Assembly: GCA_965368975.1 (NCBI GenBank) | Contig: CBDUPA010000021.1 | Coordinates: 50,352-114,351 of the forward strand | DNA: 64,000 nt | Direction: 5' to 3' | DNA from: an uncultured bacterium | GTDB lineage: Bacteria > Acidobacteriota > Thermoanaerobaculia > Multivoradales > JAHZIX01 | Part shown: positions 41,753 through 53,300 of the stretch, in pieces | How the letters are laid out: every line of letters starts with the position of its first letter | Position numbering within the stretch: position 1 is the first letter of the stretch | The notes under the pieces: generated by a model | Databases searched by the model: none | Told to the model about the DNA's origin: nothing | The model's input: only the letters and a program-made list of their open reading frames with translations | Position numbers and translations under genes: made by a program

Positions 41753-42700
41753 TCACCCCCGGTGGCGCAGCAACCAGTGCAGCACCTGCGCCTCCGCCGA
41801 CCCTGGCGCCGCGCCCAGCCCCAGGTCGAGGTGGCGCGGAAAGCCGAGATGGCCACCGCGGTCCGTCCAGCACACCTCCAGGTGTCTGCTGCCGCGCTCC
41901 AGGTACGGCTTCACCGTCTCTGCCAGCACCATCGGGTCCGCCTCGGACCCCACATACAGCGTCGGCACCCGCAACCGTTCCAGGTGCGGTGCCACGCTGA
42001 CCTGGCGGTAATAGTCCTCAGCTCCTTCGAAGCCATGGCGTGGTGCCACGATGAGGTCGTCCCAGTCCCACAGCGACCTCACCTGCTCCGCCTGCTCCAT
42101 CGGCACCGGCACCGGCCCCCTCGCCGCCACCTCACGGTAGATGTTGCGCAGCCCGATCAGCAAGAAGCGCTGGTAGGCCGCCATGTACCACTGCTTGTAG
42201 GTCTCTGCCGAGAGCTCCAGGTCGACCGGCGACGCCAGGGTCGCCACCGCCCGCACCCGCGGATCGTGGGACTCGACGGCCCAGCGCAGTACCACGTGGC
42301 CACCCAAGGAGTAGCCGAAGAAGTAGATGTCCTCGTACACCGCCAGCTGCGGGCAAGCCAGGGGGGCATCGAGATCGGCGATCAGCCCGGCGTGGTAGAA
42401 GTCCTCCCCCAGCCGGTCGGCCCCGCGCAGGTTGAGCAGCAAGCACGCTAGGCCCGCCTCGCGCGCCGCCCATACCGCCCGGGCCAGATAAGGGCTGCGC
42501 ACCGACCCGCCGAGCCCGTGGATTACCACGAACAGCCCGGTCGCATCCTGCACCTCGAACAACCTCCCCGTCAGCCGCACCATCCCTTGCCGCGCGTCCG
42601 GCACGACCGTCGACCACTCCGTCCACGGCGGCAGCGGCGGCGGCCACAGGCGGCCGTGGAGGCGAGGCAAGATGGTCCAGAGGTGTCCGCTGACTGCCAT
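41753..42700 (-). CDS. YheT-family alpha/beta hydrolase
   Basis: HGLGGS, FYHAG, GYSLGG, DPMV, GGHLGF. Confidence 0.88.
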   Translation of the reverse strand: MAVSGHLWTILPRLHGRLWPPPLPPWTEWSTVVPDARQGMVRLTGRLFEVQDATGLFVVIHGLGGSVRSPYLARAVWAAREAGLACLLLNLRGADRLGEDFYHAGLIADLDAPLACPQLAVYEDIYFFGYSLGGHVVLRWAVESHDPRVRAVATLASPVDLELSAETYKQWYMAAYQRFLLIGLRNIYREVAARGPVPVPMEQAEQVRSLWDWDDLIVAPRHGFEGAEDYYRQVSVAPHLERLRVPTLYVGSEADPMVLAETVKPYLERGSRHLEVCWTDRGGHLGFPRHLDLGLGAAPGSAEAQVLHWLLRHRG

Positions 42701-42777
42701 TGAAGGGTCCGTCTCGAGTCGTAGGGCGGGAAGACTTGTGCGGCGGGAAGAATAGCAGGGCAAGGCGCACACGGAAA

Positions 42778-42807
42778 CAGGCCGCCACACCGAAGCGCGG
42801 CGGCCTG
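42778..42807 (-). terminator. Hairpin 3' of precursor peptide 1
   Basis: CAGGCCGCC...GGCGGCCTG followed by TTTCC on the minus strand. Duplicated at 43238. Confidence 0.6.
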
Positions 42808-42840
42808 CATCCTTTCAGAGGGAAGCGAGGAAGGAAGATC

Positions 42841-43044
42841 TCACCAGGTCGGCGTGAAGGTGGTCGGGCAGCCGACCGACTCGTTGTGCACGCAGTCCGG
42901 GGAAATGGTGGTCACAACGCACTTGTAGCCTTCGGTGAAGTCGATTGGAATGGCACCACCGACCTGGTGCATTGTATCCTCCTCAAGAGCCAGCAGGGTG
43001 TCCTTGCGAAGCCGCAACCTTCGAATACTGATCCGCTTCTTCAT
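42841..43044 (-). CDS. RiPP-like precursor peptide 1 (double-glycine leader, Cys/Thr-rich core)
   Basis: MKKRISIRRLRLRKDTLLALEEDTMHQVGG|AIPIDFTEGYKCVVTTISPDCVHNESVGCPTTFTPTW. GGAG RBS. Confidence 0.8.
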   Translation of the reverse strand: MKKRISIRRLRLRKDTLLALEEDTMHQVGGAIPIDFTEGYKCVVTTISPDCVHNESVGCPTTFTPTW

Positions 43045-43228
43045 GATGTACTCCAGTTCTCATGGGTATCAGGAACCATCGTCCCGAGAATCTTGCCAAA
43101 CTCGGCCTTGTCTTAAGTAAGAACTCTAACAGACATATCATAGTAATTCCCGAACTCTCCATCAGAATTCAGTAAGAAGGCTAGCGCAGTTCATCCGGAC
43201 AGCAAATCGCCAGCTTGCATGAACACGA

Positions 43229-43277
43229 AGCAAGCTACAGGCCGCCACACCGAAGCGCGGCGGCCTGTAGCTTGCAT
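43229..43277 (-). terminator. Extended hairpin 3' of precursor peptide 2
   Basis: GCAAGCTACAGGCCGCC...GGCGGCCTGTAGCTTGC, 17-bp stem. Confidence 0.65.
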
Positions 43278-43306
43278 CCTCTCAAGGGAAGCGAGGAAGG
43301 AGGATT

Positions 43307-43525
43307 TCACCAGGTCGGCGTAAAGGTGGTCGGGCAGCCGACCGACTCGTTGTGCACGCAGTCCGGGGAAATGGTGGTCGCGATGCACACGGCGTCCTCG
43401 GTCCACTGGTCACAGATCGGATGGCCGCTGGTGCCGCCGTTGACACCCGCCATGCCGTTCTCGGTGATGGCCAGCAGGGTGTCCTTGCGCAGCTGTAGCT
43501 TCCGGGCGATGTTCCGCTTCTTCAT
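43307..43525 (-). CDS. RiPP-like precursor peptide 2
   Basis: MKKRNIARKLQLRKDTLLAITENGMAGVNGG|TSGHPICDQWTEDAVCIATTISPDCVHNESVGCPTTFTPTW. GGAG RBS; alternative ATG at 43531. Confidence 0.8.
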   Translation of the reverse strand: MKKRNIARKLQLRKDTLLAITENGMAGVNGGTSGHPICDQWTEDAVCIATTISPDCVHNESVGCPTTFTPTW

Positions 43526-43959
43526 GGTCATGTTCTCCAAGTAGCGATGGGAGTCGAGCTCCCGAATAGGGGGTTACCCTTGGGTGGGTAGTACGACTGA
43601 CTGGTACGGTTGGCGCAGTGGAAGGTTCTTTGGGATCAGATTTCTTTACATCGGGTAGAGCTGCGCGACAGGTCGTACCGATTCTCCTCGTCCTCGCACA
43701 TCCTAGGTGGAGCGGGGACCGCATCGCGCATGATGCCGAATGAGGGCGCCCCGCGGAAAGGAACCGTCGCATGAACAGGTACCTGTCGAACCGAGTGGCC
43801 CGTTGGGGGGCCGGTCCGTGGCTGGATCCAGATGGAGGCCGCCCAGGCAGTGGAGATCTCGGGCCGGGCCTTGGTTGGCTCCAATGGAGAATCACTGCGA
43901 AACGTCTAGACGTAGACTGAATGCGTGAACTCCGCCATCAATTAAGCGAGCCTCACCTC

Positions 43960-43999
43960 TAGTCCTGCAAAGACACGAGTAGTCCTGCAGAGACACTAG
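43960..43999. repeat. 20-bp direct repeat x2 upstream of the Zn-finger TPR gene
   Basis: TAGTCCTGCAAAGACACGAG / TAGTCCTGCAGAGACACTAG. Confidence 0.65.
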
Positions 44000-44129
44000 G
44001 ATCATCTCTCGCAGTAGTCGGTAGCGAGGCACAAGCCTCGCTACTGAATTTTTTAGCGTGGATGTCACGATTTCTCGTCTGCTCGCACTTTAGAGGCAAC
44101 CTAGACGAAAATCCAATCTTGGAGATACC

Positions 44130-45374
44130 ATGTACCATCTTCCTCGCGAGTTGTTCGAGGCTCATTTGGCAGGCGATATTTCCCCCAGAGAGCTTTCAAG
44201 ATTCCTGGCTGAACACCTGATAACCCTCTGCCCCTTGTGCGAAGCGGAGTTACGAGCGGTCCAGCGGAGTCTGGACAATCAAGATCATGGGCAACGAGGG
44301 GAGCCGAAGCCAAGTCCCGAGGATTGGCACCAAGCGCGCAAGTGGATGGAGGAGTTACAGCGGGATCCGATCTCGATCTGGGCGGGCAAGGTTGCCAGAG
44401 CGAGGAAGCGTTTTCGCGGCCCTGCATTCGCCGAACTCATGCTAGAGCAGGCCAGGTTATATCCTGAGAATGCCCTGGAAACTACAACCTGCGCACAGAT
44501 GGCCCTCCCCCGGCAAGGATTTGCCAGTACACGCATTGATGCTATGGCCTGCGCACTGCAGATGAACGCCTATCGCGTGCAGGGCAGCTACGACCGGGCA
44601 CAACAGTACCTGGATCTACTGCCAGCCCTCCTGAATGGAGTCACGAACCCGGCCTGCCAGGCCGAGGCCGCAAGCCTGATTGGCTCTCTCCTCATCGACC
44701 TACGTCATTTCAGCAAGGCGAAGCAGCATCTGAGCTACGCTGCAATTCTCTCCAAGCACATCCTGCGAGACAGTGAACTCAGCGCCAGGACGGCAATCAA
44801 GATATCTGGCATCCACTACTACCAGCGCCAGTGGGACCAGGCTCTGAACGCTCTTCTGCCGGCTTTCCAAGATGTGCAGGAAGAAGAAACACCCCGCATT
44901 TACTTCATCTTGCGCTACAACCTGGCGATGCTCTTCTGCGCAATGAACCATCCAGACGCTGCGCTGGAGCTTCTCCCCGAGGTACAAGCAGGCTTGCGGC
45001 AGCATGGCACCACCATCGACCAGAGGTCACTGCAGTGGCTGGAAGGTCGGATTCACGGGGGTCTGAGCGATCATCATCGCGCTTACCGACTGCTGACAGA
45101 TCTCCGGGATCAATACCTGCAAGAAGGGCAACATTTCTGTGCGGCGATCGTCGCCTGCGACATTTGCTGCCTGCATCTGGATCGAAATGAACTGGACGCC
45201 GCCGTGGAGATCTTGCAACCAGCCCTGTCGACCATGTGCCGCCACTCGCTGCACGAGGAAAGCGAACAGGTTGTGCGCGGCTTGCAGAACGCCCTGCTTC
45301 GAGGTGTATTGACGCTCACGACACTGAAGGCTGCCCTGCCCCACCTGGAACAGGCAGCTCGCGTCGTTCGCTAG
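44130..45374 (+). CDS. TPR protein with an N-terminal anti-sigma-like Zn finger
   Basis: H3...EHLITLCPLC (Hx4CxxC), then helical repeats (RYNLAMLF, LQWLEGRI, CAAIVACDIC). GGAG RBS. Confidence 0.75.
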   Translation: MYHLPRELFEAHLAGDISPRELSRFLAEHLITLCPLCEAELRAVQRSLDNQDHGQRGEPKPSPEDWHQARKWMEELQRDPISIWAGKVARARKRFRGPAFAELMLEQARLYPENALETTTCAQMALPRQGFASTRIDAMACALQMNAYRVQGSYDRAQQYLDLLPALLNGVTNPACQAEAASLIGSLLIDLRHFSKAKQHLSYAAILSKHILRDSELSARTAIKISGIHYYQRQWDQALNALLPAFQDVQEEETPRIYFILRYNLAMLFCAMNHPDAALELLPEVQAGLRQHGTTIDQRSLQWLEGRIHGGLSDHHRAYRLLTDLRDQYLQEGQHFCAAIVACDICCLHLDRNELDAAVEILQPALSTMCRHSLHEESEQVVRGLQNALLRGVLTLTTLKAALPHLEQAARVVR

Positions 45375-45637
45375 TCTTGGCCCAGATCCGCGACGCATCT
45401 AGCATTCCGTATCACGGTGACGGAGTCAGGTCCCCGATGGCTTGGTGCAACCTTGTTGGACGGAATCACAGATCCTTGATCGGGTAGGAACCCGGCATGG
45501 TTCGGAGACGAAGGGTGATTCTGGAGCCGGGGCTGGGGGTGGGGGATGGGGCTGGGGGGTGGCGATTGGGTGGTTTGTTGTTGGGGCGGATGGGATAGGC
45601 GCCGCGGGCGTGTCGACTTGGGATGCGAGGGTTGTGC

Positions 45638-45721
45638 TACCTCGGCGCGCTCAAACGGCTCGCGGTGCCCCTGCAACTGCTCCAGATCGCGGGCATCCTC
45701 ATGGCTGTAACTAACAAAGAC
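45638..45721 (-). pseudogene. Short TIR-domain N-terminal remnant
   Basis: VFVSYSHEDARDLEQLQGHREPFER matches the bacterial TIR start pattern VFISYSHxDxxxxxxLxxHLxPLxR. Nothing TIR-like follows. Confidence 0.5.
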
Positions 45722-45840
45722 CTCGGCCCAGCCACGGCACCCTCCTGCCAAGAGGCATTCAAACATTCACACAGATGTAGGCGGGAGCGATTGTATCGGA
45801 CGGGAAGCGGTGGACCAACTCTGACCCGCTCCCAGATACA

Positions 45841-45895: not shown

Positions 45896-48733
45896 CTACA
45901 TCCGCGACGGCTGCCCCAGCGTGACCTCCATCTCGACGCGCTCGCCATCGCGGACCACCACGGCCTTGGCCTTGGTGCCCGGCTCCGCGCGGCGCAGGAC
46001 GAACATCATGTCGTAGAGGTTCTTGATCTGCGTGCCGCCGAGTTCGACCAGGCGATCACCGCGTTGCATGCCGGCTTCGTCTGCAGGGCCGCCGGGGCGG
46101 ACGCCGGCGAAGAGGACGCCGGGCTCGTCGCTCTCGGAGTAGTCCGGGATGGAACCAAGCGAGGCGCCGGAGGAGCGGGTGTCACCGCGCGGTACGCGGG
46201 GCGGGGCACTACGGTAGGTGAGGAGTTCGTCGCGCGCGGCCAGGGTGCCGGAGAGGTCGGCGATGACGGCGGCGATCTGGGCGGCGCCGGAGGCGTTGAT
46301 GTGTTCGAGGTCGTCGGACGGACGGTGGTAGTCCTCATGGGTGCCGCTGAAGAAGTGCAGGACGGGAATACCGGCGGCGTAGAAGGGGGTCTGGTCGGAG
46401 CGGCCGTAGCCGGTGCCGCCGACGTCGCAGCGGACGCCGCGCGCGGTACAGATCGGGGCGACCAGGTCGCTCCACTCTTCGGCCGACTCACCACCCAGGA
46501 CGCTGACGACGTTGTTCTCCATGCGACCGACCATGTCGAGGTTGATCATGGCGACCAGGTTGTCGAGCTCGACACCGCCGGTGGGCTCTTTGCTGAAGTG
46601 CGTCGAGCCGAGCAGGCCGAGTTCTTCGCCGGCGAAGGCAACGAAGTAGACATCGCGCGGTAGCTCATCTTGACGCGCCATGAGATGACGCGCGATCTCG
46701 AGCAGGGCGGCGGTGCCGGAGGCGTTGTCGTCGGCACCGTTGTGAACTTCTTCGACGCCCGGGGCCAGCGAGCCTTCACCGCCGAGGCCGAGGTGGTCGT
46801 AGTGGGCGCCGATCAGGACCGCACCGGGCTTGCGGTCGACGGCCAGCGACGGCAGGCGACCGACGACGTTGTGCGCGGTGGAGTGGCGAACCTTGAGGTC
46901 GAGCTCGATGCTGGCGCTGGCGGTGCTACCGAAGAGGCCGGCACCGGCTTCACGCTTCAGGTAGAGCACCGGCATGTCGGCGGTGCCCTTGGCGTCGACA
47001 CGGCGGCGCGGAAAGGTGGCCTCTTCAGGCATCTCTTCGCCTTCGGCGAGCAGCGGAGCGTCGACGACGATCATGCCGGCGGCGCCCTTCTCGCGTGCGT
47101 TGAAGGCCTTGTAGCGCAGGTCGCTGTAACGACGCTGGTTCTCGGTGTCGTCGAAGGGTGCGGCTGTTGGCGCGAAGCGGCGCACCAGGACGATCTTCCC
47201 TGTGACGTCGAGACCTTCGTAGTCATCGACCTCCAGTTCGGGTGCGCTGATGCCATAGCCGACGTCGACCAGCTCACCCTCGACCTGACCGGTGCCAGAG
47301 AAAGCGGCGATCTGGTAGACGGAGGTCTCGATCTCGGTGCCATCGATGACCAGCGACTGCTGGAGCACGTCGACATCGGTCGGGATCTGGAAACGCTGCA
47401 GGAAGCCTTGCTCACCGGCCGGACGCAGGCCGACCCTCTGGAACTGGCGGCCCAGCCAGTCGGCCGAAGCGCGAAGGCCTTCGGTCTCGACGCCACGGCC
47501 CTGGCGCGCGTCGCTGGCCAGCCAGGCGATGTCGTCGTAGAGACGGTCGGCACCGGTCTCGAGCACCGGCCTGTTGGCGCGATCGAGCCAGCGGGCGAGG
47601 TAGATGTCCGTCTCGCCCGGCTTGCCCTGGTTACGGTTGGAGGCGAAGACGAGGTCGAGACCATCGTTGGGCGAGAACAGCGGGAACCCGTCGAAGCCCG
47701 GAGCGTAGGTGATGCGCTGTAGGTTGGTGCCGTTGAGATCGATCGCCCACAGGTCGAATTCGCGCTCGTCGTTGCCATAGTTGCTGGAGAAGATGATGCG
47801 GTCACCGGAGGGATAGAAGGACGGTGCGAAGGAAGCCGCCGCCAGGTAGGTGACCTGACGCGCATGCGTGCCGTCGGCGTTGGCGACCCAGATCTCCAGC
47901 TCGCCGGGGCGAATCAGCCCTTCCTTCAGCAACCGCTGGTAGTCCTGGCGCGAGGCGTCGTCGAAGAAGCGCGAGGCACGCCAGACGATCTGCGAGCAGT
48001 CGGGCGAGAAGAAGGCACCGCCGTCGTAGCCCAGGGTGTCGGTGAGCCGCTGCACGTTGCTGCCGTCGGCATCCATGCGATAGAGGTCGAGGTCGCCGTC
48101 GCGGGTCGAGGTGAAGACGACGGAACCGTCGATCGGGCACACCGTCGCCTCGGCGTCGTAGGCCTTGTTCTTGGTCAGGCGCACCACGTCGCTGCCGTCC
48201 GGCTTGGCGCTGTAGATCTCGTAGCTGTCGTAGATCGCCCAGACATAACCCTGGCTGTGATCCGGCGCCGGCGGGCACTTGCGGCTCTTGTCGTGGGTCG
48301 AGGCGTAGTAGATGCGCTCGCCTTCCGGGTAGCTGAAGTAGCCGCAGGTGGTACGGCCTTCGCCGGTCGACACCAGCGTCGCTTGCCCTGCCCGCAGCGA
48401 CGACATGCGGAAGATCTGGTCACACTCGTAGCCGGGGCGGGTGGATTGGAAGATGAGGTAGCGAGCGTCAGGGGACCAGTAGGCCTCGGCGTTCTCCCCG
48501 CCATAGGTCATCTGACGCACCTGGGAGAGGTGCACCTCTCGCGGATCTCGCAGCCGCCCGGACGCTTCGAACGCGACACGTGCGGTCTCTTCATCGATCT
48601 CCGACGGGTTGGCCAGCGGTGCGGCCTCGATCAGCGAGTCGAGATAGAGAGCCGACGGGTACGGCACGGTGGCCAAGAGGCCGACGGAAAGGGAGGCGAA
48701 GGTGAGGATCCGGAACAAGTGGCGCGACTGCAT
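45896..48733 (-). CDS. Secreted fusion of TolB-like PD40 propeller, PA domain, M28 peptidase and PDZ
   Basis: GGENAEAYWSPD, GYDGGAFFSPD repeats, DVTGKIVLV, GAHYDHLG, NGADDNASG, GEELGLLGS, NLDMVGR, DYHRPSD, PDZ GGPADEAGMQRGD. Confidence 0.92.
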   Translation of the reverse strand: MQSRHLFRILTFASLSVGLLATVPYPSALYLDSLIEAAPLANPSEIDEETARVAFEASGRLRDPREVHLSQVRQMTYGGENAEAYWSPDARYLIFQSTRPGYECDQIFRMSSLRAGQATLVSTGEGRTTCGYFSYPEGERIYYASTHDKSRKCPPAPDHSQGYVWAIYDSYEIYSAKPDGSDVVRLTKNKAYDAEATVCPIDGSVVFTSTRDGDLDLYRMDADGSNVQRLTDTLGYDGGAFFSPDCSQIVWRASRFFDDASRQDYQRLLKEGLIRPGELEIWVANADGTHARQVTYLAAASFAPSFYPSGDRIIFSSNYGNDEREFDLWAIDLNGTNLQRITYAPGFDGFPLFSPNDGLDLVFASNRNQGKPGETDIYLARWLDRANRPVLETGADRLYDDIAWLASDARQGRGVETEGLRASADWLGRQFQRVGLRPAGEQGFLQRFQIPTDVDVLQQSLVIDGTEIETSVYQIAAFSGTGQVEGELVDVGYGISAPELEVDDYEGLDVTGKIVLVRRFAPTAAPFDDTENQRRYSDLRYKAFNAREKGAAGMIVVDAPLLAEGEEMPEEATFPRRRVDAKGTADMPVLYLKREAGAGLFGSTASASIELDLKVRHSTAHNVVGRLPSLAVDRKPGAVLIGAHYDHLGLGGEGSLAPGVEEVHNGADDNASGTAALLEIARHLMARQDELPRDVYFVAFAGEELGLLGSTHFSKEPTGGVELDNLVAMINLDMVGRMENNVVSVLGGESAEEWSDLVAPICTARGVRCDVGGTGYGRSDQTPFYAAGIPVLHFFSGTHEDYHRPSDDLEHINASGAAQIAAVIADLSGTLAARDELLTYRSAPPRVPRGDTRSSGASLGSIPDYSESDEPGVLFAGVRPGGPADEAGMQRGDRLVELGGTQIKNLYDMMFVLRRAEPGTKAKAVVVRDGERVEMEVTLGQPSRM

Positions 48734-48908
48734 TGGCGATGTCTCCGTTACTGCTGCGGTGAGGGCTTGGCGGGATGGGGCCGAAGGGGCCCGAGGTGGA
48801 GGTTTCATATTAGCAGATGCCGTGCGGCGCCTCCGTTCGACACCTCGGTCGTGCCGATCGCGGCTCTCCCGCACTCCGGTCGAGCAACGGTTCGGGTAGA
48901 GTGAAGAT

Positions 48909-50087
48909 ATGAGCAAAGGGCTGATTCGCGTGCTCGTCCTCCTGGCTGTGGTAGCAGCGGCCTGGTGGCTGCGGTCCACGTGGTTGCAGCCACGGCCGGT
49001 GACCGTGCAGGTGGTGACGGTGACCCCCGGAGCCGTGGAGGCGATCGTGACGAATTCACGTGCTGGCACAGTCAAGGCCCGGCAGCGCGCACGCCTGTCC
49101 CCCGAGGTCGGGGGACGGGTGGTCCACTTGCCCTATCGGGAGGGCGCCCAGGTTGCTGCCGGTGAGGTCGTGCTGCGGCTGGACGATGCCCTACCGCGCG
49201 CACGGCTCGACCTGGCACGCAGCGACCTGGCGACGGCGGTAGCGCAGCGCGACGGTGCCTGCCTGGAGAACCGGCGCGCCGAGCGTGAGGCGGTGCGCAT
49301 CCGTGCCCTGGCGGCGGACGGCATCGTCTCGACCGACGCGCTCGACGCCATCGACACCAAGGTCGAGAGCACGCTCGCCGTGTGTACCGCCTCGGAAGCC
49401 GCAGTGCGGCGGGCGCGCGACGCGGTAGCGCTACAGCAGACGGAGGTCCAGCGCTTCGAGCTGCGTGCGCCCTTCGCGGGCATCGTGGCCGAGCTGTCGA
49501 TCGAGATCGGCGAGTGGACGACGCCCTCGCCGCCCGCAATGCCAGTGCCGGCGGTGATCGACATTCTGGACCCAGCGTCGATCTACATCAGCGCACCAAT
49601 GGACGAGGTCGACTCGGCCCGCATCCATCCCGGACAACCCGTGCGGGTGAGCGTCGACTCACACCGAGGCGAGACCTTCGAGGGCACCGTCGAGCGAGTG
49701 GCCCCCTACGTGCTGGACGTCGAAGAGCAGAACCGGACGGTCGAGATCGAGGTCGCGCTGCGAGATCGGGACCTCGCCGCGACGCTGCTGCCCGGCACCT
49801 CGGCCGACGTCGAAGTCATCCTGGAGTCCCGACCGGACGTGCTGCGGCTGCCAACGTCGGCGGTGCAGGGAGGACGTCAGGTGCTGGTGTGGGTTGCCGC
49901 GGACGATGGAACGGACAGAGACGGCGACCTCGGCCGCTTGGAGGAACGCGCGGTGACCACCGGCCTGCGCAACTGGGAGTGGGTCGAGATCACCAGCGGC
50001 GTGACGGCTGGCGAGCGGGTGGTGGCGGTGATCGATGGTCCCGAGATCGTCGCGGGCGTGCCGGCCCTGGCACACGAGACCCCATGA
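48909..50087 (+). CDS. Efflux periplasmic adaptor (MacA-like MFP)
   Basis: N-terminal anchor, LSPEVGGRV, helical hairpin, LRAPFAGIV, TGLRNWEWVEITSG. Confidence 0.9.
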   Translation: MSKGLIRVLVLLAVVAAAWWLRSTWLQPRPVTVQVVTVTPGAVEAIVTNSRAGTVKARQRARLSPEVGGRVVHLPYREGAQVAAGEVVLRLDDALPRARLDLARSDLATAVAQRDGACLENRRAEREAVRIRALAADGIVSTDALDAIDTKVESTLAVCTASEAAVRRARDAVALQQTEVQRFELRAPFAGIVAELSIEIGEWTTPSPPAMPVPAVIDILDPASIYISAPMDEVDSARIHPGQPVRVSVDSHRGETFEGTVERVAPYVLDVEEQNRTVEIEVALRDRDLAATLLPGTSADVEVILESRPDVLRLPTSAVQGGRQVLVWVAADDGTDRDGDLGRLEERAVTTGLRNWEWVEITSGVTAGERVVAVIDGPEIVAGVPALAHETP

Positions 50088-50131
50088 TCGAGCTGGAAGA
50101 TGATTGAGCTAGAGCATGATTGAGCTGGTAC
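50084..50131. repeat. 16-bp tandem triplication of the ABC ATPase start
   Basis: ATGATCGAGCTGGAAG / ATGATTGAGCTAGAGC / ATGATTGAGCTGGTAC. Confidence 0.75.
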
Positions 50132-50844
50132 ACCTGGCACGGACCTTCGAGGTCGGCGACGAGGAGGTGCACGCGCTGGTCGACGTCAGCGAGACGATCG
50201 CGGCCGGTGAGCACGTCGCGATCATGGGACCCTCTGGCTCCGGCAAGTCGACGCTGCTCAACCTGCTCGGCTGCCTCGACCGCCCCACTTCCGGTAGCTA
50301 TCGCCTCGACGGCCGCGAGGTGAGCCGGCTGAGCGAGTCCGAGTTGACCCGCGTGCGGCGGCACCAGATCGGCTTCGTCTTCCAGAGCTTCCACCTGGTG
50401 CCACGCTTGACGGCGCTCGAGAACGTCGAGCTGCCGCTGCTGTTCGCCGGCATCCGCCGCGGTGAACGGCGCAAGCGGGCCGAGCGTGCACTCGACGCCG
50501 TGGCACTCTCCGACCGGCTCGACCACCGCCCCGACCAGCTCTCCGGCGGCCAGCGTCAGCGCGTGGCCCTGGCGCGCGCCACCGTCACCCAGCCGCGCAT
50601 CCTGCTCGCCGACGAGCCCACCGGCAATCTGGACACCGCTTCCGGTGACCAGGTACTCACCCTGCTCATTGGACTGCAGCAACAAGGTTTGACACTGATC
50701 GTGGTCACCCACGATCCGCACGTCGCCCGGCGCGCCGATCGCGTGCTGGTGCTGGTCGACGGCCTGGTGGGCCGCCGCCTTGCCGGCCACGAGGTGCGGG
50801 ACACCCTGGTTGCGGATGCGGCGGGTACGCGGGAGCCGGCATGA
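50116..50844 (+). CDS. ABC ATP-binding protein (MacB/LolD type)
   Basis: GPSGSGKST, IGFVFQSF, LSGGQRQRV, LADEPTGNLD, VTHD. Confidence 0.94.
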   Translation: MIELVHLARTFEVGDEEVHALVDVSETIAAGEHVAIMGPSGSGKSTLLNLLGCLDRPTSGSYRLDGREVSRLSESELTRVRRHQIGFVFQSFHLVPRLTALENVELPLLFAGIRRGERRKRAERALDAVALSDRLDHRPDQLSGGQRQRVALARATVTQPRILLADEPTGNLDTASGDQVLTLLIGLQQQGLTLIVVTHDPHVARRADRVLVLVDGLVGRRLAGHEVRDTLVADAAGTREPA

Positions 50845-52046
50845 AGGTCTTCGAAGTCGTCGCCTTCGCCATGCGGGCCTTACGCGGTCATCGACTGCGC
50901 ACCGTCCTGAGCCTGCTCGGCATGGCGATCGGCATCGCCGCCGTGCTGGTCCTCACCGCGCTGGGCAACGGCGCGCGGCTCTACGTGACTGACCAGTTCA
51001 ACAGCATCGGTAGCAATCTGCTGATCCTGCTACCCGGCCGTGCCGAGACCACCGGCGGCACCATCCCCGGCACCTTGGGCGTGCCCAACGACCTGACGCT
51101 CGACGACGCCGAGACCTTGCGGCGCCATCTGCCGAGGGTCCGCCGCGTCGCCCCGATCACCCTCAACAGCGAGACCGTCGCCTTCCAGGAGCGGCGGCGA
51201 CAGGTGGCGGTGATCGGCGCCACGCGCGCCTACTTCACCATTCGTCAATTGGAGCTGGCTGCCGGTAGCTTCCTGCCCGACGAGGAGGCGCACCGGGGCG
51301 CGCCTCTGGTGGTGCTCGGCAGCGGCGTGGCCCGCGAACTGTTCGACGAACAGAACGCCATCGGCCAAGCTGTGCGCATCGGCGGCGGCCGCTACCGGGT
51401 GATCGGCGTCCTGGCGACCAGCGGCACCCAGCTGGGCGTCGACCTCGACGAGCTGGCGGTCATCCCCGTCGCGTCCGCCATGCGCCTGTTCAACCGCAGC
51501 TCCCTGTTCCGCGTGCTGCTGCAGACCTGGTCTTACAACGACCTCGAAAGCGCCCAAGCGCAGGCCACGGCACTGCTCGCCGAACGCCATGGCGAGGAAG
51601 ACTTCACCTGCATCCGTCAGGACTCCGTGGTCAGCGGCCTGGGCTCGATCCTCGGCACCTTGACCCTCGTCCTGGTGACCATCGCCGCTGTCTCCCTGAC
51701 CGTCGCTGGTATCGGCATCATGAACGTCATGCTGGTCTCGGTGTCCGAGCGGACGCGCGAAGTCGGTCTGCTCAAAGCTCTGGGCGCCGGCCGGCGTCAG
51801 ATTCTCGGCGTCTTTCTGGCGGAAGCCATCCTGCTCTCCGCCGCCGGTGGCCTGCTCGGCCTCGGCCTCGGTGCCGCCGCCATCCGCGTCAGCTTGCACC
51901 TCTTCCCCGCGCTCCCCGCCTCGCCGCCAACCTGGGCGATCGTCTCCGCGCTCGGCGTCTCGGTTCTCACCGGGGTTGCCTTCGGTGTCCTGCCCGCCCG
52001 CCGCGCCAGCGAACTCGACCCCATCACCGCCCTCGCTGGCCACTGA
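50841..52046 (+). CDS. ABC permease, MacB/FtsX type
   Basis: LGMAIGIAAV, GIGIMNVMLVSVSERTREVGLLKALGA, PARRASELDP. Confidence 0.93.
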   Translation: MKVFEVVAFAMRALRGHRLRTVLSLLGMAIGIAAVLVLTALGNGARLYVTDQFNSIGSNLLILLPGRAETTGGTIPGTLGVPNDLTLDDAETLRRHLPRVRRVAPITLNSETVAFQERRRQVAVIGATRAYFTIRQLELAAGSFLPDEEAHRGAPLVVLGSGVARELFDEQNAIGQAVRIGGGRYRVIGVLATSGTQLGVDLDELAVIPVASAMRLFNRSSLFRVLLQTWSYNDLESAQAQATALLAERHGEEDFTCIRQDSVVSGLGSILGTLTLVLVTIAAVSLTVAGIGIMNVMLVSVSERTREVGLLKALGAGRRQILGVFLAEAILLSAAGGLLGLGLGAAAIRVSLHLFPALPASPPTWAIVSALGVSVLTGVAFGVLPARRASELDPITALAGH

Positions 52047-52061
52047 CCAGGACACTTGCCC

Positions 52062-53300
52062 ATGTCCTCGCTCCTGCCCGACTCCCTCCTGCCTGAGCTG
52101 CTCCGCCTCGCGCTCCGCTCGCTCGCCGCCTACCGTCTGCGCTCGATCCTCAGCGTCCTCGGCATCGCCGTCGGCATCGCCTCGGTCATCCTCTTGACCT
52201 CCGTCGGCGAAGGCACGCGCCGCTACATCGAGAGCGAGTTCACCCAGTTCGGCACCCATATCGTCACCATCTTCCCCGGCAAGGCCGAGACCATCGGCAT
52301 CCCCGGCGTCCTCGGCGGCACGACGCACAAGCTCACGATCGCCGACGCCGAAGCCCTGGCTCACGTTCCCGGGGTCGTCAGCTCGATGCCGGTGGTCACC
52401 GGTACCGCCCGCGTCGAAGCCGTGGACCCCGAACTGGGCGGTCGTGGTCGTAGCGTCATGATCTACAGCGTCACGCCGACGATCCAGGACATGTGGGAGT
52501 TCTACCCCGTCCAAGGTGAGTTCTGGCCCGCCGGCGACCCCCGCCGGTCGCCCCCCCTGACCGTCCTGGGCCCGACGCTGAAGGAGGAACTCTTCGGCGA
52601 CACCAACGCCCTCGGCCAGTTCGTCCGCATCGGCGGCCGGCGCTTCCGCATCGTCGGCTTGATGGAACCCAAAGGTCAATTGTTGGGCCTGGACCTCGAC
52701 GATGGCGCCTACATCCCCGTCTCCTACGGCCTGCAACTCTTCAACCGCGACGAGCTCACCAACATCGACATCCGCTACGCCGAAGGTACCGACCCCGCCC
52801 GCGTAGAAGCCGCCGTCCGCGTCGCGATGATCGAACGTCACCGTGGCGAAGAAGACTTCTCCATCACCAGCCAGGCCGCCATGCTCGACGTCCTCGGCAA
52901 CGTCATCAACATCGTCACCGTCGCGGTGAGTGGAATCGCCGGGATCTCGCTGCTCGTCGGTGCTGTCGGAATTCTGACCATGATGTGGATCGCGGTCGGC
53001 GAAAGGACGTCCGAGATCGGCTTGTTGCGGGCCATCGGCGCGAGCCGGCGTCAAATCCGCTTGTTGTTTCTAGCGGAGGCCGGAGCTCTGGCGGCACTGG
53101 GGGGTGTGGTGGGCTTGGCAGTGGGGATGGGCCTGTGCGCGGTGCTGCGAGAATTGGTGCCGGCTCTGCCCGTGCACACACCGCTGATCTATGCCATCGC
53201 GGCCGTGGGCGTCAGTGGAGTGACGGGATTGCTGGCGGGAGTGTTGCCGGCGCGGAGAGCGTCGAGGTTGGATCCCGTCGAGGCGTTGCAGGCGGAGTGA
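52062..53300 (+). CDS. ABC permease, MacB/FtsX type (second)
   Basis: LGIAVGIASV, GILTMMWIAVGERTSEIGLLRAIGA, PARRASRLDPVEAL. Confidence 0.93.
   Translation: MSSLLPDSLLPELLRLALRSLAAYRLRSILSVLGIAVGIASVILLTSVGEGTRRYIESEFTQFGTHIVTIFPGKAETIGIPGVLGGTTHKLTIADAEALAHVPGVVSSMPVVTGTARVEAVDPELGGRGRSVMIYSVTPTIQDMWEFYPVQGEFWPAGDPRRSPPLTVLGPTLKEELFGDTNALGQFVRIGGRRFRIVGLMEPKGQLLGLDLDDGAYIPVSYGLQLFNRDELTNIDIRYAEGTDPARVEAAVRVAMIERHRGEEDFSITSQAAMLDVLGNVINIVTVAVSGIAGISLLVGAVGILTMMWIAVGERTSEIGLLRAIGASRRQIRLLFLAEAGALAALGGVVGLAVGMGLCAVLRELVPALPVHTPLIYAIAAVGVSGVTGLLAGVLPARRASRLDPVEALQAE

Follow-up and report, generated by a model that had tools for sequence, protein, structure and literature searches.

Two tandem precursor genes

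Two short genes, here named pepA and pepB, lie in tandem on the minus strand of contig C21 of the Acidobacteriota genome studied here (G000); all positions refer to the window, that is, the whole stretch of 64,000 nt that was analysed. The gene pepA (42841-43044) encodes 67 residues, and pepB (43307-43525) encodes 72 residues counted from its ATG, with longer starts possible at 43531 and 43540. Based on the open-reading-frame (ORF) calls and the leader model NF038153, both are assigned to the precursors of class I lanthipeptides (LanA), pepB to the type 1 and pepA to a form resembling the type 2 described below. The two proteins are 69% identical overall, and their final 23 residues, TTISPDCVHNESVGCPTTFTPTW, are the same. 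Both follow the scheme MKKR...(R/K)LxLRKDTLLA...GG. The leader of pepA comprises residues 1-30, with Gly-Gly at 29-30, and is followed by a core of 37 residues with three Cys; that of pepB comprises residues 1-31, with Gly-Gly at 30-31, followed by a core of 41 residues with four Cys. Every one of these Cys has a Ser or Thr 3-6 residues upstream, which attests compatibility with rings only.

Each gene carries the signals of an independent unit. A GGAG stands 6-9 nt 5' of the ATG in both, and each gene ends in a terminator hairpin on the minus strand: 42777-42808 for pepA (-40.5 kcal/mol, z = -4.17) and 43230-43275 for pepB (20-bp stem, -52.8 kcal/mol, z = -7.76). None of 200 shuffled sequences folded as well in either case, and a terminator scan placed terminator-like sites at both hairpins. 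The 31-nt hairpin core is 100% identical between the two copies, and the pepA hairpin extends into the downstream hydrolase ORF if that ORF is read from its longest possible start. We could not find a sigma-70-like promoter between 42600 and 44300, where the consensus may not fit this phylum, nor any Rfam match between 41500 and 46500 at E ≤ 0.1, nor a Pfam match for pepA or pepB. The whole of contig C21 gave no match to LanB, LanC, LanM, YcaO, radical SAM or C39 proteins. An earlier note on this DNA had described two reading frames with an identical 23-residue C-terminus, an (R/K)LxLRKDTL leader, a Gly-Gly site, three versus four Cys, a ribosome-binding site and a duplicated 3' untranslated region (UTR) with hairpin for each gene, and no such enzyme or transporter gene in the window; all of this was borne out.

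Class assignment of the leaders

Both peptides pass NF038153 (lant_leader_L1a, "class I lanthipeptide"), with 23.5 bits for pepA and 25.9 bits for pepB against a curated cut-off of 22, so that automated annotation would already call them "class I lanthipeptide". In the parts of Walker et al. 2020 (PMC7268733) that we could consult, an LxLxKx5L leader ending in Gly-Gly is described for class I LanAs, and leaders of this kind for the LanAs of Bacteroidetes, in a group that includes pinensin. The spacing in pepA and pepB, L10-x-L12-x-K14-x5-L/I20 with a Gly-Gly end, fits the motif as it is defined in those parts of the paper. The lanthipeptide-type leader proposed in the earlier note is therefore confirmed, and by their sequence pepA and pepB are class I LanAs of the LxLxKx5L...GG leader type. 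Neither the leader family nor the enzyme chemistry is new, and distantly encoded precursors are known as well; the cores of pepA and pepB are new. The two leaders agree at 18 of 31 positions, 10 of them among the 14 of the motif segment (residues 9-22), a likeness that chance would not give; a profile built from this genome's own copies of the leader finds each of them at E of about 1e-10, so the description of the leaders as diverged was overstated.

Gene conversion of the identical tail

At the DNA level the likeness between the two genes is confined to certain segments. The leaders are 63.4% identical, with five synonymous changes among 18 conserved codons, and the variable part of the core 59.0%, whereas the last 23 codons are 98.6% identical, only 1 of 69 nt being different (a synonymous TTC/TTT change). 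The alignment extends through the 3' UTR and terminator that follow (55 columns matching, 9 mismatched, 6 gapped), and the 200 nt 5' of each gene show no relation to one another (62 matches in 146 aligned columns, 108 gap columns). If the tail had changed at the rate of the leader (5 in 18), one synonymous change or fewer in 23 codons would have a probability of P = 0.0055. A repeat finder recovered three repeats in the pair, namely the tail block, the leader block and the hairpin core. Recovered as repeats D1 and D3, the tail copies, each made up of the final 23 codons with their stop codon and of the 3' UTR with the terminator hairpin, run on the minus strand from 42777 to 42912 (copy A) and from 43237 to 43378 (copy B).

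Because the likeness covers both the tail and the non-coding 3' UTR and terminator, while the leader, the variable core and the 5' flanks differ, the identical tail is a tract of about 140 nt, recently converted or recombined between tandem paralogues that are themselves old. A recent duplication of the whole gene is contradicted by the diverged leader and variable core and by the unrelated upstream 200 nt, and selection alone would not give such a signature. Selection on the tail appears to be present as well as conversion, since P0002, the closest relative from another organism, retains the last 15 residues of pepB unchanged while 6 of 18 residues differ in the N-terminal part of the core (N-core). 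Recent gene conversion, one of the two causes named in the earlier note, thus stands on the single difference in 69 nt and on the extension of the likeness into the 3' UTR and terminator; strong selection, the other, agrees with the conserved last 15 residues of P0002 but would not by itself have produced the tract.

A tandem pair in another genome of the same order, G397, is a mosaic in other segments: its 5' UTRs, leaders and a 24-nt patch encoding CVHHNTVG are alike, and its N-cores and tail ends differ. Judged from these comparisons, the N-cores of both pairs, in G000 and in G397, remain of two separate types while other modules have been made alike.

Relatives in canonical class I operons

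A word-indexed search of 5.8 billion proteins with pepB returned the metagenomic protein P0002, encoded on a 1981-bp contig and 83% identical, as the sole foreign relative; it keeps all four Cys, T42, T50, T51 and the leader segment 9-22. A HMMER scan of 1.84 billion representative proteins with a three-sequence profile found 15 proteins at E ≤ 0.001, of which one is pepA and 14 are foreign. The distant relative P0011 is recorded at NCBI as "MAG: class I lanthipeptide [Acidobacteriota bacterium]". A search of 40 related genomes with pepB alone gave leader-level matches only, and the pepB core had no match in genome contigs or in JGI metagenome contigs.

In the subfamily of 15 members, the leader (LRLRKDTL type) and a central motif, TE(N/D)xxC(V/I/L)ATT(L/I)(A/S)PxC, are conserved; C47 and C56 are near-invariant and T42 and T50/51 conserved (pepB numbering). 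Variation is greatest in the C-terminal tails. The N-cores fall into two recurring types: type 1, GG-TSGHP(I/V)C..HTEN.VC, in pepB, P0002, P0004 and P0005, and type 2, GG-V(S/T)A.C..DFTC.Q(I/V)C, in P0007 and P0008. pepA has the DFT element of type 2, as do the downstream copy in G397 and P0007, but lacks two type 2 Cys. The tail that G000 and P0002 share is a shortened form of the long, Cys-rich ones in the other relatives. The earlier note had taken the fixed tail beside diverged leaders for the reverse of the usual pattern, and had proposed a constant ring scaffold joined to a variable specificity segment. Outside the pair neither idea holds: it is the tails that vary most among the 15 members, leader and central motif are conserved, and the N-cores belong to two recurring types.

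The genomic setting of the closest relatives was seen in 401 genomes of the class, searched with the subfamily profile (A4), a full-length match being one at E ≤ 1e-23. Such matches occur only in G000 and in two other genomes of the same order, G397 and G313. The pair in G397 is spaced about 460 bp apart, with type 1 upstream and type 2 downstream, matching the window's pair in order and spacing, so that two distinct co-encoded peptides, type 1 followed by type 2, recur in G000 and G397; in G313 the type 1 gene stands alone in the 19 kb examined. The N-core TSGHP(I/V)C..TE(N/D)..VC(I/V)ATT of pepB is common to the operon-linked peptides of both genomes, and all three G397 and G313 peptides pass NF038153. 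After the G397 pair come a full-length LanB (Lant_dehydr_N, 556 bits, and the C domain), a LanC and a C39 ABC transporter, and the order in G313 is LanA-LanB-LanC-HlyD-C39 ABC transporter. Because these relatives precede LanB, LanC and C39 genes, the peptide family of pepA and pepB is the LanA of a canonical class I operon elsewhere. In G000 the pair stands separated from any synthetase. The word orphan, applied to the two genes in the earlier note, therefore suits their genomic position only, since their relatives head LanA-LanB-LanC-transporter operons.

Maturation enzymes elsewhere in the genome

The earlier note had supposed that the enzymes lie outside the window and had suggested searching the genome for lanthipeptide synthetases and peptidase-containing transporters; a full-length LanB, LanCs, a LanM and three C39 transporters were found. 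The LanB is on contig C13 (Lant_dehydr_N, 558 bits; Lant_dehydr_C, 223 bits), flanked by two LanAs of the same leader family and by two LanCs. It is homologous to MibB and NisB (match to NisB, 4wd9), and its closest relatives in named records come from Acidobacteria/Acidobacteriota, Thermoanaerobaculia, Pedobacter and Saprospiraceae. It is the only match in G000 of the G397 and G313 LanBs, at 42-45% identity over the full length. The best LanC match to those two operons is C13:45174-46457, with 41% identity; of the C13 LanCs, one was examined and keeps the WCYG and CHG motifs, with a match to NisC (2g02). The best match to their C39 transporters is C8:192209-194398, with 61.5% identity and an adjoining HlyD gene, and a second HlyD-C39 pair is on C13. 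The genome contains four stand-alone LanCs. By homology, then, all the operon parts occur in G000, at separate loci.

At two further loci, C1:561252-562878 and C13:186160-187704, a leader-family LanA lies directly upstream of a LanC, and no LanB is close by; dehydration of these peptides, if it occurs, would call for a dehydratase working in trans. O-methyltransferase or methyltransferase genes are found near both. The single LanM of the genome, on C18, is 50 kb from the nearest leader-family member. Further LanB-like ORFs of 878-1698 residues, at C9:118735-128334 and C12:118700-120874, have no leader-family ORF nearby and probably belong to other pathways for peptides that are made on the ribosome and modified after translation (RiPPs).

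A complex was modelled from residues 1-840 of the C13 LanB (10-row alignment) and pepB (14-row alignment), with three controls. The model scored 0.61 against 0.00 for the best control, which may reflect only the likeness to the solved NisB-NisA complex; a score of 0.61 is reached by 58 of 80 solved complexes and by 2 of 110 mismatched pairs. Runs agreed in at least 33% of contacts, with a partner pLDDT of at least 39. In the predicted interface the leader motif (pepB 9-22) lies on LanB 244-268 and 290-316, a placement that likewise may come from the likeness to NisB-NisA.

A dispersed family of precursors

The earlier note had proposed a search of the genome for more leaders of the LxLxKxTL type, and this search was productive. 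A leader profile was seeded with 45 of 49 regular-expression matches from G000, the other four (C1:688430, C2:192076, C2:475889 and C9:216765) being dropped by eye as not leader-like. At E < 0.01 it recovered 54 distinct leader-family ORFs at 35 loci on 20 contigs; two of the 35 loci touch contig ends, where the context is incomplete. The cores of the family contain 12.2% Cys (0.96% in the crude proteome), 11.7% Thr and 8.1% Ser, and all but one of the 54 members have at least one Cys. Just 4 of the 54 have a LanB or LanC at a distance of 10 kb or less; the other 50 are farther away, beginning at 17 kb. Two closed genomes from related genera, G401 and G371, have each matched precursor at least 96 kb from any LanB, and the dispersal is thus not an artefact of assembly. 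In one family member, C1:497166-497399, the core has an internal duplication, with two units ending in ...NTVLCCD, and an ABC ATPase gene adjoins. In G007 (C7:27493-28991), six to seven tandem leader-family precursors stand beside a LanB of 1361 residues; their leaders are near-identical and their cores variable, forming a cis-encoded mini-library.

The leader keeps company with LanB across the related genomes, which are not independent samples. NF038153 has matches in 6 of 41 of them, all among the ten with a strong LanB (E ≤ 1e-90), and none in the other 31; among the four strong-LanB genomes with no such match, two (G010 and G038) have a LanA beside the LanB that is found by the leader profile. 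These counts bear on the idea that pepA and pepB are unmodified or disulfide-bonded bacteriocins in which the Gly-Gly leader serves only for C39 export and cleavage. Such peptides would suit the three C39 transporters of the genome, the four Cys of pepB and the distance from any modifying enzyme. Yet the Cys number of pepA is odd, the leader is curated as that of class I lanthipeptides and co-occurs only with strong LanB in the 41 genomes, the related peptides are in operons with LanB and LanC, and no transporter or immunity gene is adjacent, with no C39 match on C21. We regard this idea as very unlikely.

The neighbours of the family members were compared at the 29 loci defined by regular expression. 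ABC ATPases (six loci), Ser/Thr kinases, extracytoplasmic function (ECF) sigma factors and very large proteins recur, and the only specific neighbour is LanC (three loci). The ABC ATPases, kinases and ECF sigma factors belong to families that are abundant here and fit chance co-location. Two members lie by radical SAM genes: C10:200822 is about 330 bp from, and divergent to, C10:200059-200493 (region C10:200059-201127), and C27:37436 is about 1.6 kb from C27:39359 (region C27:37436-39829). The only YcaO gene of the genome is 7 kb from the C27 locus. Such neighbours would be expected if another class of RiPP enzyme, for example a radical SAM protein, reads the same leader. However, 2 of 35 loci is near the number expected by chance (an estimate of about 0.7, from 35 radical SAM genes in 7.1 Mb), C21 has no radical SAM gene, and the relatives of the pair are in operons with LanB and LanC. 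This alternative is highly improbable.

Probable maturation in trans

Because matching enzymes are encoded on other contigs and 50 of the 54 family ORFs are remote from LanB and LanC, we favour maturation in trans. In this reading, which we consider probable, pepA and pepB are a detached pair of class I LanAs, matured by the C13 LanB and the LanCs of the genome and then cut and exported by a C39 transporter. The modification in trans proposed in the earlier note agrees with the presence of the enzymes elsewhere in the genome; the action in trans, as well as expression, ring topology and activity of the two peptides, is what we infer from sequence as the best reading.

The two genes would each be transcribed separately, from upstream of their own ribosome-binding site to their own terminator. 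Leader segment 9-22 would dock on the leader-binding region of the C13 LanB, which would dehydrate Ser and Thr of the core by way of glutamyl-tRNA, and one of the four stand-alone LanCs would add Cys to form thioether rings. Candidate conserved rings, in pepB numbering, are T42-C47 and T50/51-C56. A C39 ABC transporter with its HlyD partner, from C8 or C13, would cut after the Gly-Gly and export the peptide. The tail has been homogenised by conversion of about 140 nt between the tandem paralogues, with the 3' UTR and terminator copied too.

Several observations weigh against this reading. No maturase, C39 transporter or immunity gene was found on C21. The Ser closest to C56, S53, corresponds to an Ala in P0002 and most relatives, and the ring assignments are tentative for this reason. 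Across the family, 168 of 187 Cys have a Ser or Thr 2-7 residues upstream, no more than a modest excess over the roughly 74% estimated by chance from a Ser plus Thr content of 20%. The tail of G000 and P0002 is much shorter than those of the other relatives and lacks 3-6 of their Cys, and pepA lacks two Cys; judged from the alignment, the shortened tail and the missing Cys could be decay. The LanBs of G397 and G313 form a clade of their own (94/99) in a tree that is otherwise a star, with 6 of 10 inner branches open and no settled place for the G000 enzyme; by this tree the resident LanB is not established as their orthologue, which is the chief weakness of the reading in trans, and the cognate enzyme may be absent from G000.

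Alternatively, the genes could be stranded relics, a pair moved or acquired without its cognate LanB, LanC and transporter, rejected by the resident LanB, and now either unmatured or silent and decaying. The pair does lie in an insert of lower GC content that holds no enzymes (see below), next to which can be set the resident LanB that is not resolved as an orthologue of those in G397 and G313, the shortened tail and the Cys lost from pepA. On the other side, both ORFs are intact and each has a ribosome-binding site and a strong terminator; the short-tailed form recurs, 83% identical, on the contig of another organism (P0002) with all Cys and the leader motif intact; and although the leader DNA is 63% identical the motif has been held, a sign of purifying selection. 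The predicted docking of pepB on LanB passes its controls (0.61 versus 0.00), although this may be likeness to NisB-NisA. Finally, the enzymes are just as distant for 50 of the 54 family members, and 50 relics are hard to accept. We therefore judge the relic explanation unlikely, and prefer maturation in trans.

The insert and its neighbouring genes

The pair and a TPR gene occupy about 3.1 kb (42791-45835, boundaries approximate) between two genes that lie outside the system, both on the minus strand: an alpha/beta hydrolase gene (41753-42790; Pfam Abhydrolase_1, NCBIfam PRK10985) and an M28/PD40/PDZ peptidase gene (45896-49075; Pfam). The M28 gene has orthologues of 57-61% identity in all five genomes of the same family, and three of these loci were compared. 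In G001 and G002 the hydrolase orthologue follows about 250 bp after the M28 orthologue; in G003 there is no hydrolase in the 14.6 kb downstream of it. Because the flanking genes are adjacent in G001 and G002 and 3.1 kb apart in G000, pepA, pepB and the TPR gene constitute an insertion, the GC content of which is 58.3%, as against 64.6% for the window. Past the M28 gene is an efflux module of HlyD, ABC and two MacB/FtsX genes (48909-53300). We found no link that would make this module or the M28 gene a partner of the peptides; the M28 and hydrolase genes adjoin each other in G001 and G002, and here the insert lies between them.

The TPR gene (44130-45374, plus strand), divergent to pepB, encodes 414 residues with a weak match to Pfam TPR_12 and a match to the NsdA family below cut-off; no Pfam or NCBIfam model reaches its cut-off. 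Its N-terminal H..HxxxxCxxC motif is zinc-finger-like, with H3, H29, C34 and C37 invariant in 18 homologues, and presumably resembles that of zinc-binding anti-sigma factors. The predicted structure (pLDDT 88) is an all-helical repeat of about eight TPR-like units that matches generic TPR proteins such as LGN, APC subunits and Rap, the last at a TM score of about 0.5. The family has about ten paralogues per genome in the order and is present in 23 of the 41 related genomes. The 452-residue ORF upstream of the G313 LanA is not its counterpart, being unrelated (hhalign probability 0.3).

Apart from the question of maturation, the two peptides, matured or not, might be a signalling pair sensed by the co-inserted TPR protein in the manner of Rap and Phr. 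The TPR gene does share the insert and is divergent to pepB, a paralogue in G000 is likewise placed beside a precursor (C12:226619), so that two of the four closest paralogues are so arranged, and the fold matches include the peptide-binding Rap proteins. However, none of 28 homologue loci in other genomes has a leader-family ORF within 1.5 kb, on which ground we rejected the TPR protein as a conserved partner of the peptides; no TPR gene of this kind adjoins the operon-linked relatives in G397 and G313, and the fold matches are generic TPR superhelices (LGN, APC subunits). A signalling pair is accordingly quite unlikely.

Three further observations concern the insert. A 20-nt unit is repeated in perfect register at 43960-43999, with copies 90% identical; it lies on the upstream side of both divergent genes, about 130 nt from the TPR gene and about 435 nt from pepB. 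With up to three mismatches allowed it occurs nowhere else in the genome, it has no counterpart at the C12 module, and it could be the binding site of a regulator. A G-rich direct repeat of GGGGCTGGGGGTGGGGGAT-like units occupies 45529-45560, in the stretch that separates the TPR gene from the terminator of the M28 gene, and a G-run resembling it is found upstream of the C12 TPR paralogue. In one DNA sequencing run, a 244-nt piece, the only one of four short contig pieces with a good fit, is identical to 44147-44390; it has no bearing on the peptides.

Comparison with known systems

Two-component lantibiotics such as lacticin 3147 and haloduracin are class II products, with one LanM per peptide. 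They resemble the present pair in consisting of two different tandem peptides, the pairing and order of which recur in G397, and differ from it in having a LanM each. In G313 the type 1 gene had no type 2 partner within the 19 kb covered.

The leader of nisin carries an FNLD box, from which the motif of pepA and pepB differs. Nisin is similar in that its enzymes are homologous to the LanB and LanC here (NisA/NisB/NisC) and in the predicted docking of the leader on the same kind of dehydratase region. The core of pepA and pepB, unlike that of nisin, has no lipid II motif, and cleavage at the Gly-Gly would be expected from a C39 transporter rather than from a LanP protease. In the portions of PMC7268733 that we consulted, the nisin-type leader motif is given as FxLD.

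To the class I LanAs of Bacteroidetes (NF038153, the pinensin group, as far as the consulted parts of the literature describe it), pepA and pepB are similar in the leader motif, the Gly-Gly end and the core rich in Cys, Ser and Thr, and their relatives, as with NF038153-type LanAs, adjoin a full-length LanB, a LanC and a C39 transporter. They differ in that the host belongs to the Acidobacteriota, the cores are new and the genes are detached from every enzyme.

In architecture there is a likeness to the prochlorosins, class II peptides for which, according to the consulted parts of PMC7268733, one promiscuous synthetase, ProcM, serves many distant precursors. In G000 there are likewise 54 precursors with a conserved leader and hypervariable Cys-rich cores, mostly far from the single matching dehydratase. 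However, the machinery is of class I (a separate LanB and several LanCs), not a LanM, and the leader is of the NF038153 type, not the Nif11 type. The same parts of that paper state that the search of Walker et al. did not reach beyond seven genes from a LanC domain and that prochlorosin precursors were undercounted owing to this range. In the literature, of which the supplementary tables were not covered, we could not find an account of any Acidobacteriota class I system whose precursors, about 50 in number, are dispersed.

Implications

Mining tools confined to the surroundings of LanB and LanC would miss pepA and pepB and about 50 other genes in this genome, and the architecture, a dispersed library of class I precursors, is the more interesting side of the finding than the peptides themselves. 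A wider reading joins these observations, and we put it forward tentatively, as a possibility somewhat short of even. It holds that the order may run a class I counterpart of the prochlorosins, with one LanB, a few LanCs, separate HlyD-C39 exporters and about 50 hypervariable precursors per genome; that the pair would be a conserved unit of two types, alpha/beta-like, which would have left its operon and would use the shared machinery; and that gene conversion would swap core modules, affecting the tail and terminator in G000 and the leader and a central patch in G397. If conversion does swap modules in this way, it would be a recombinational route to new ring topologies. If one set of LanB and LanC serves all the precursors, this would be a naturally promiscuous class I system in a poorly studied phylum, useful for peptide engineering, and a second, independent case of library-style lanthipeptide evolution.

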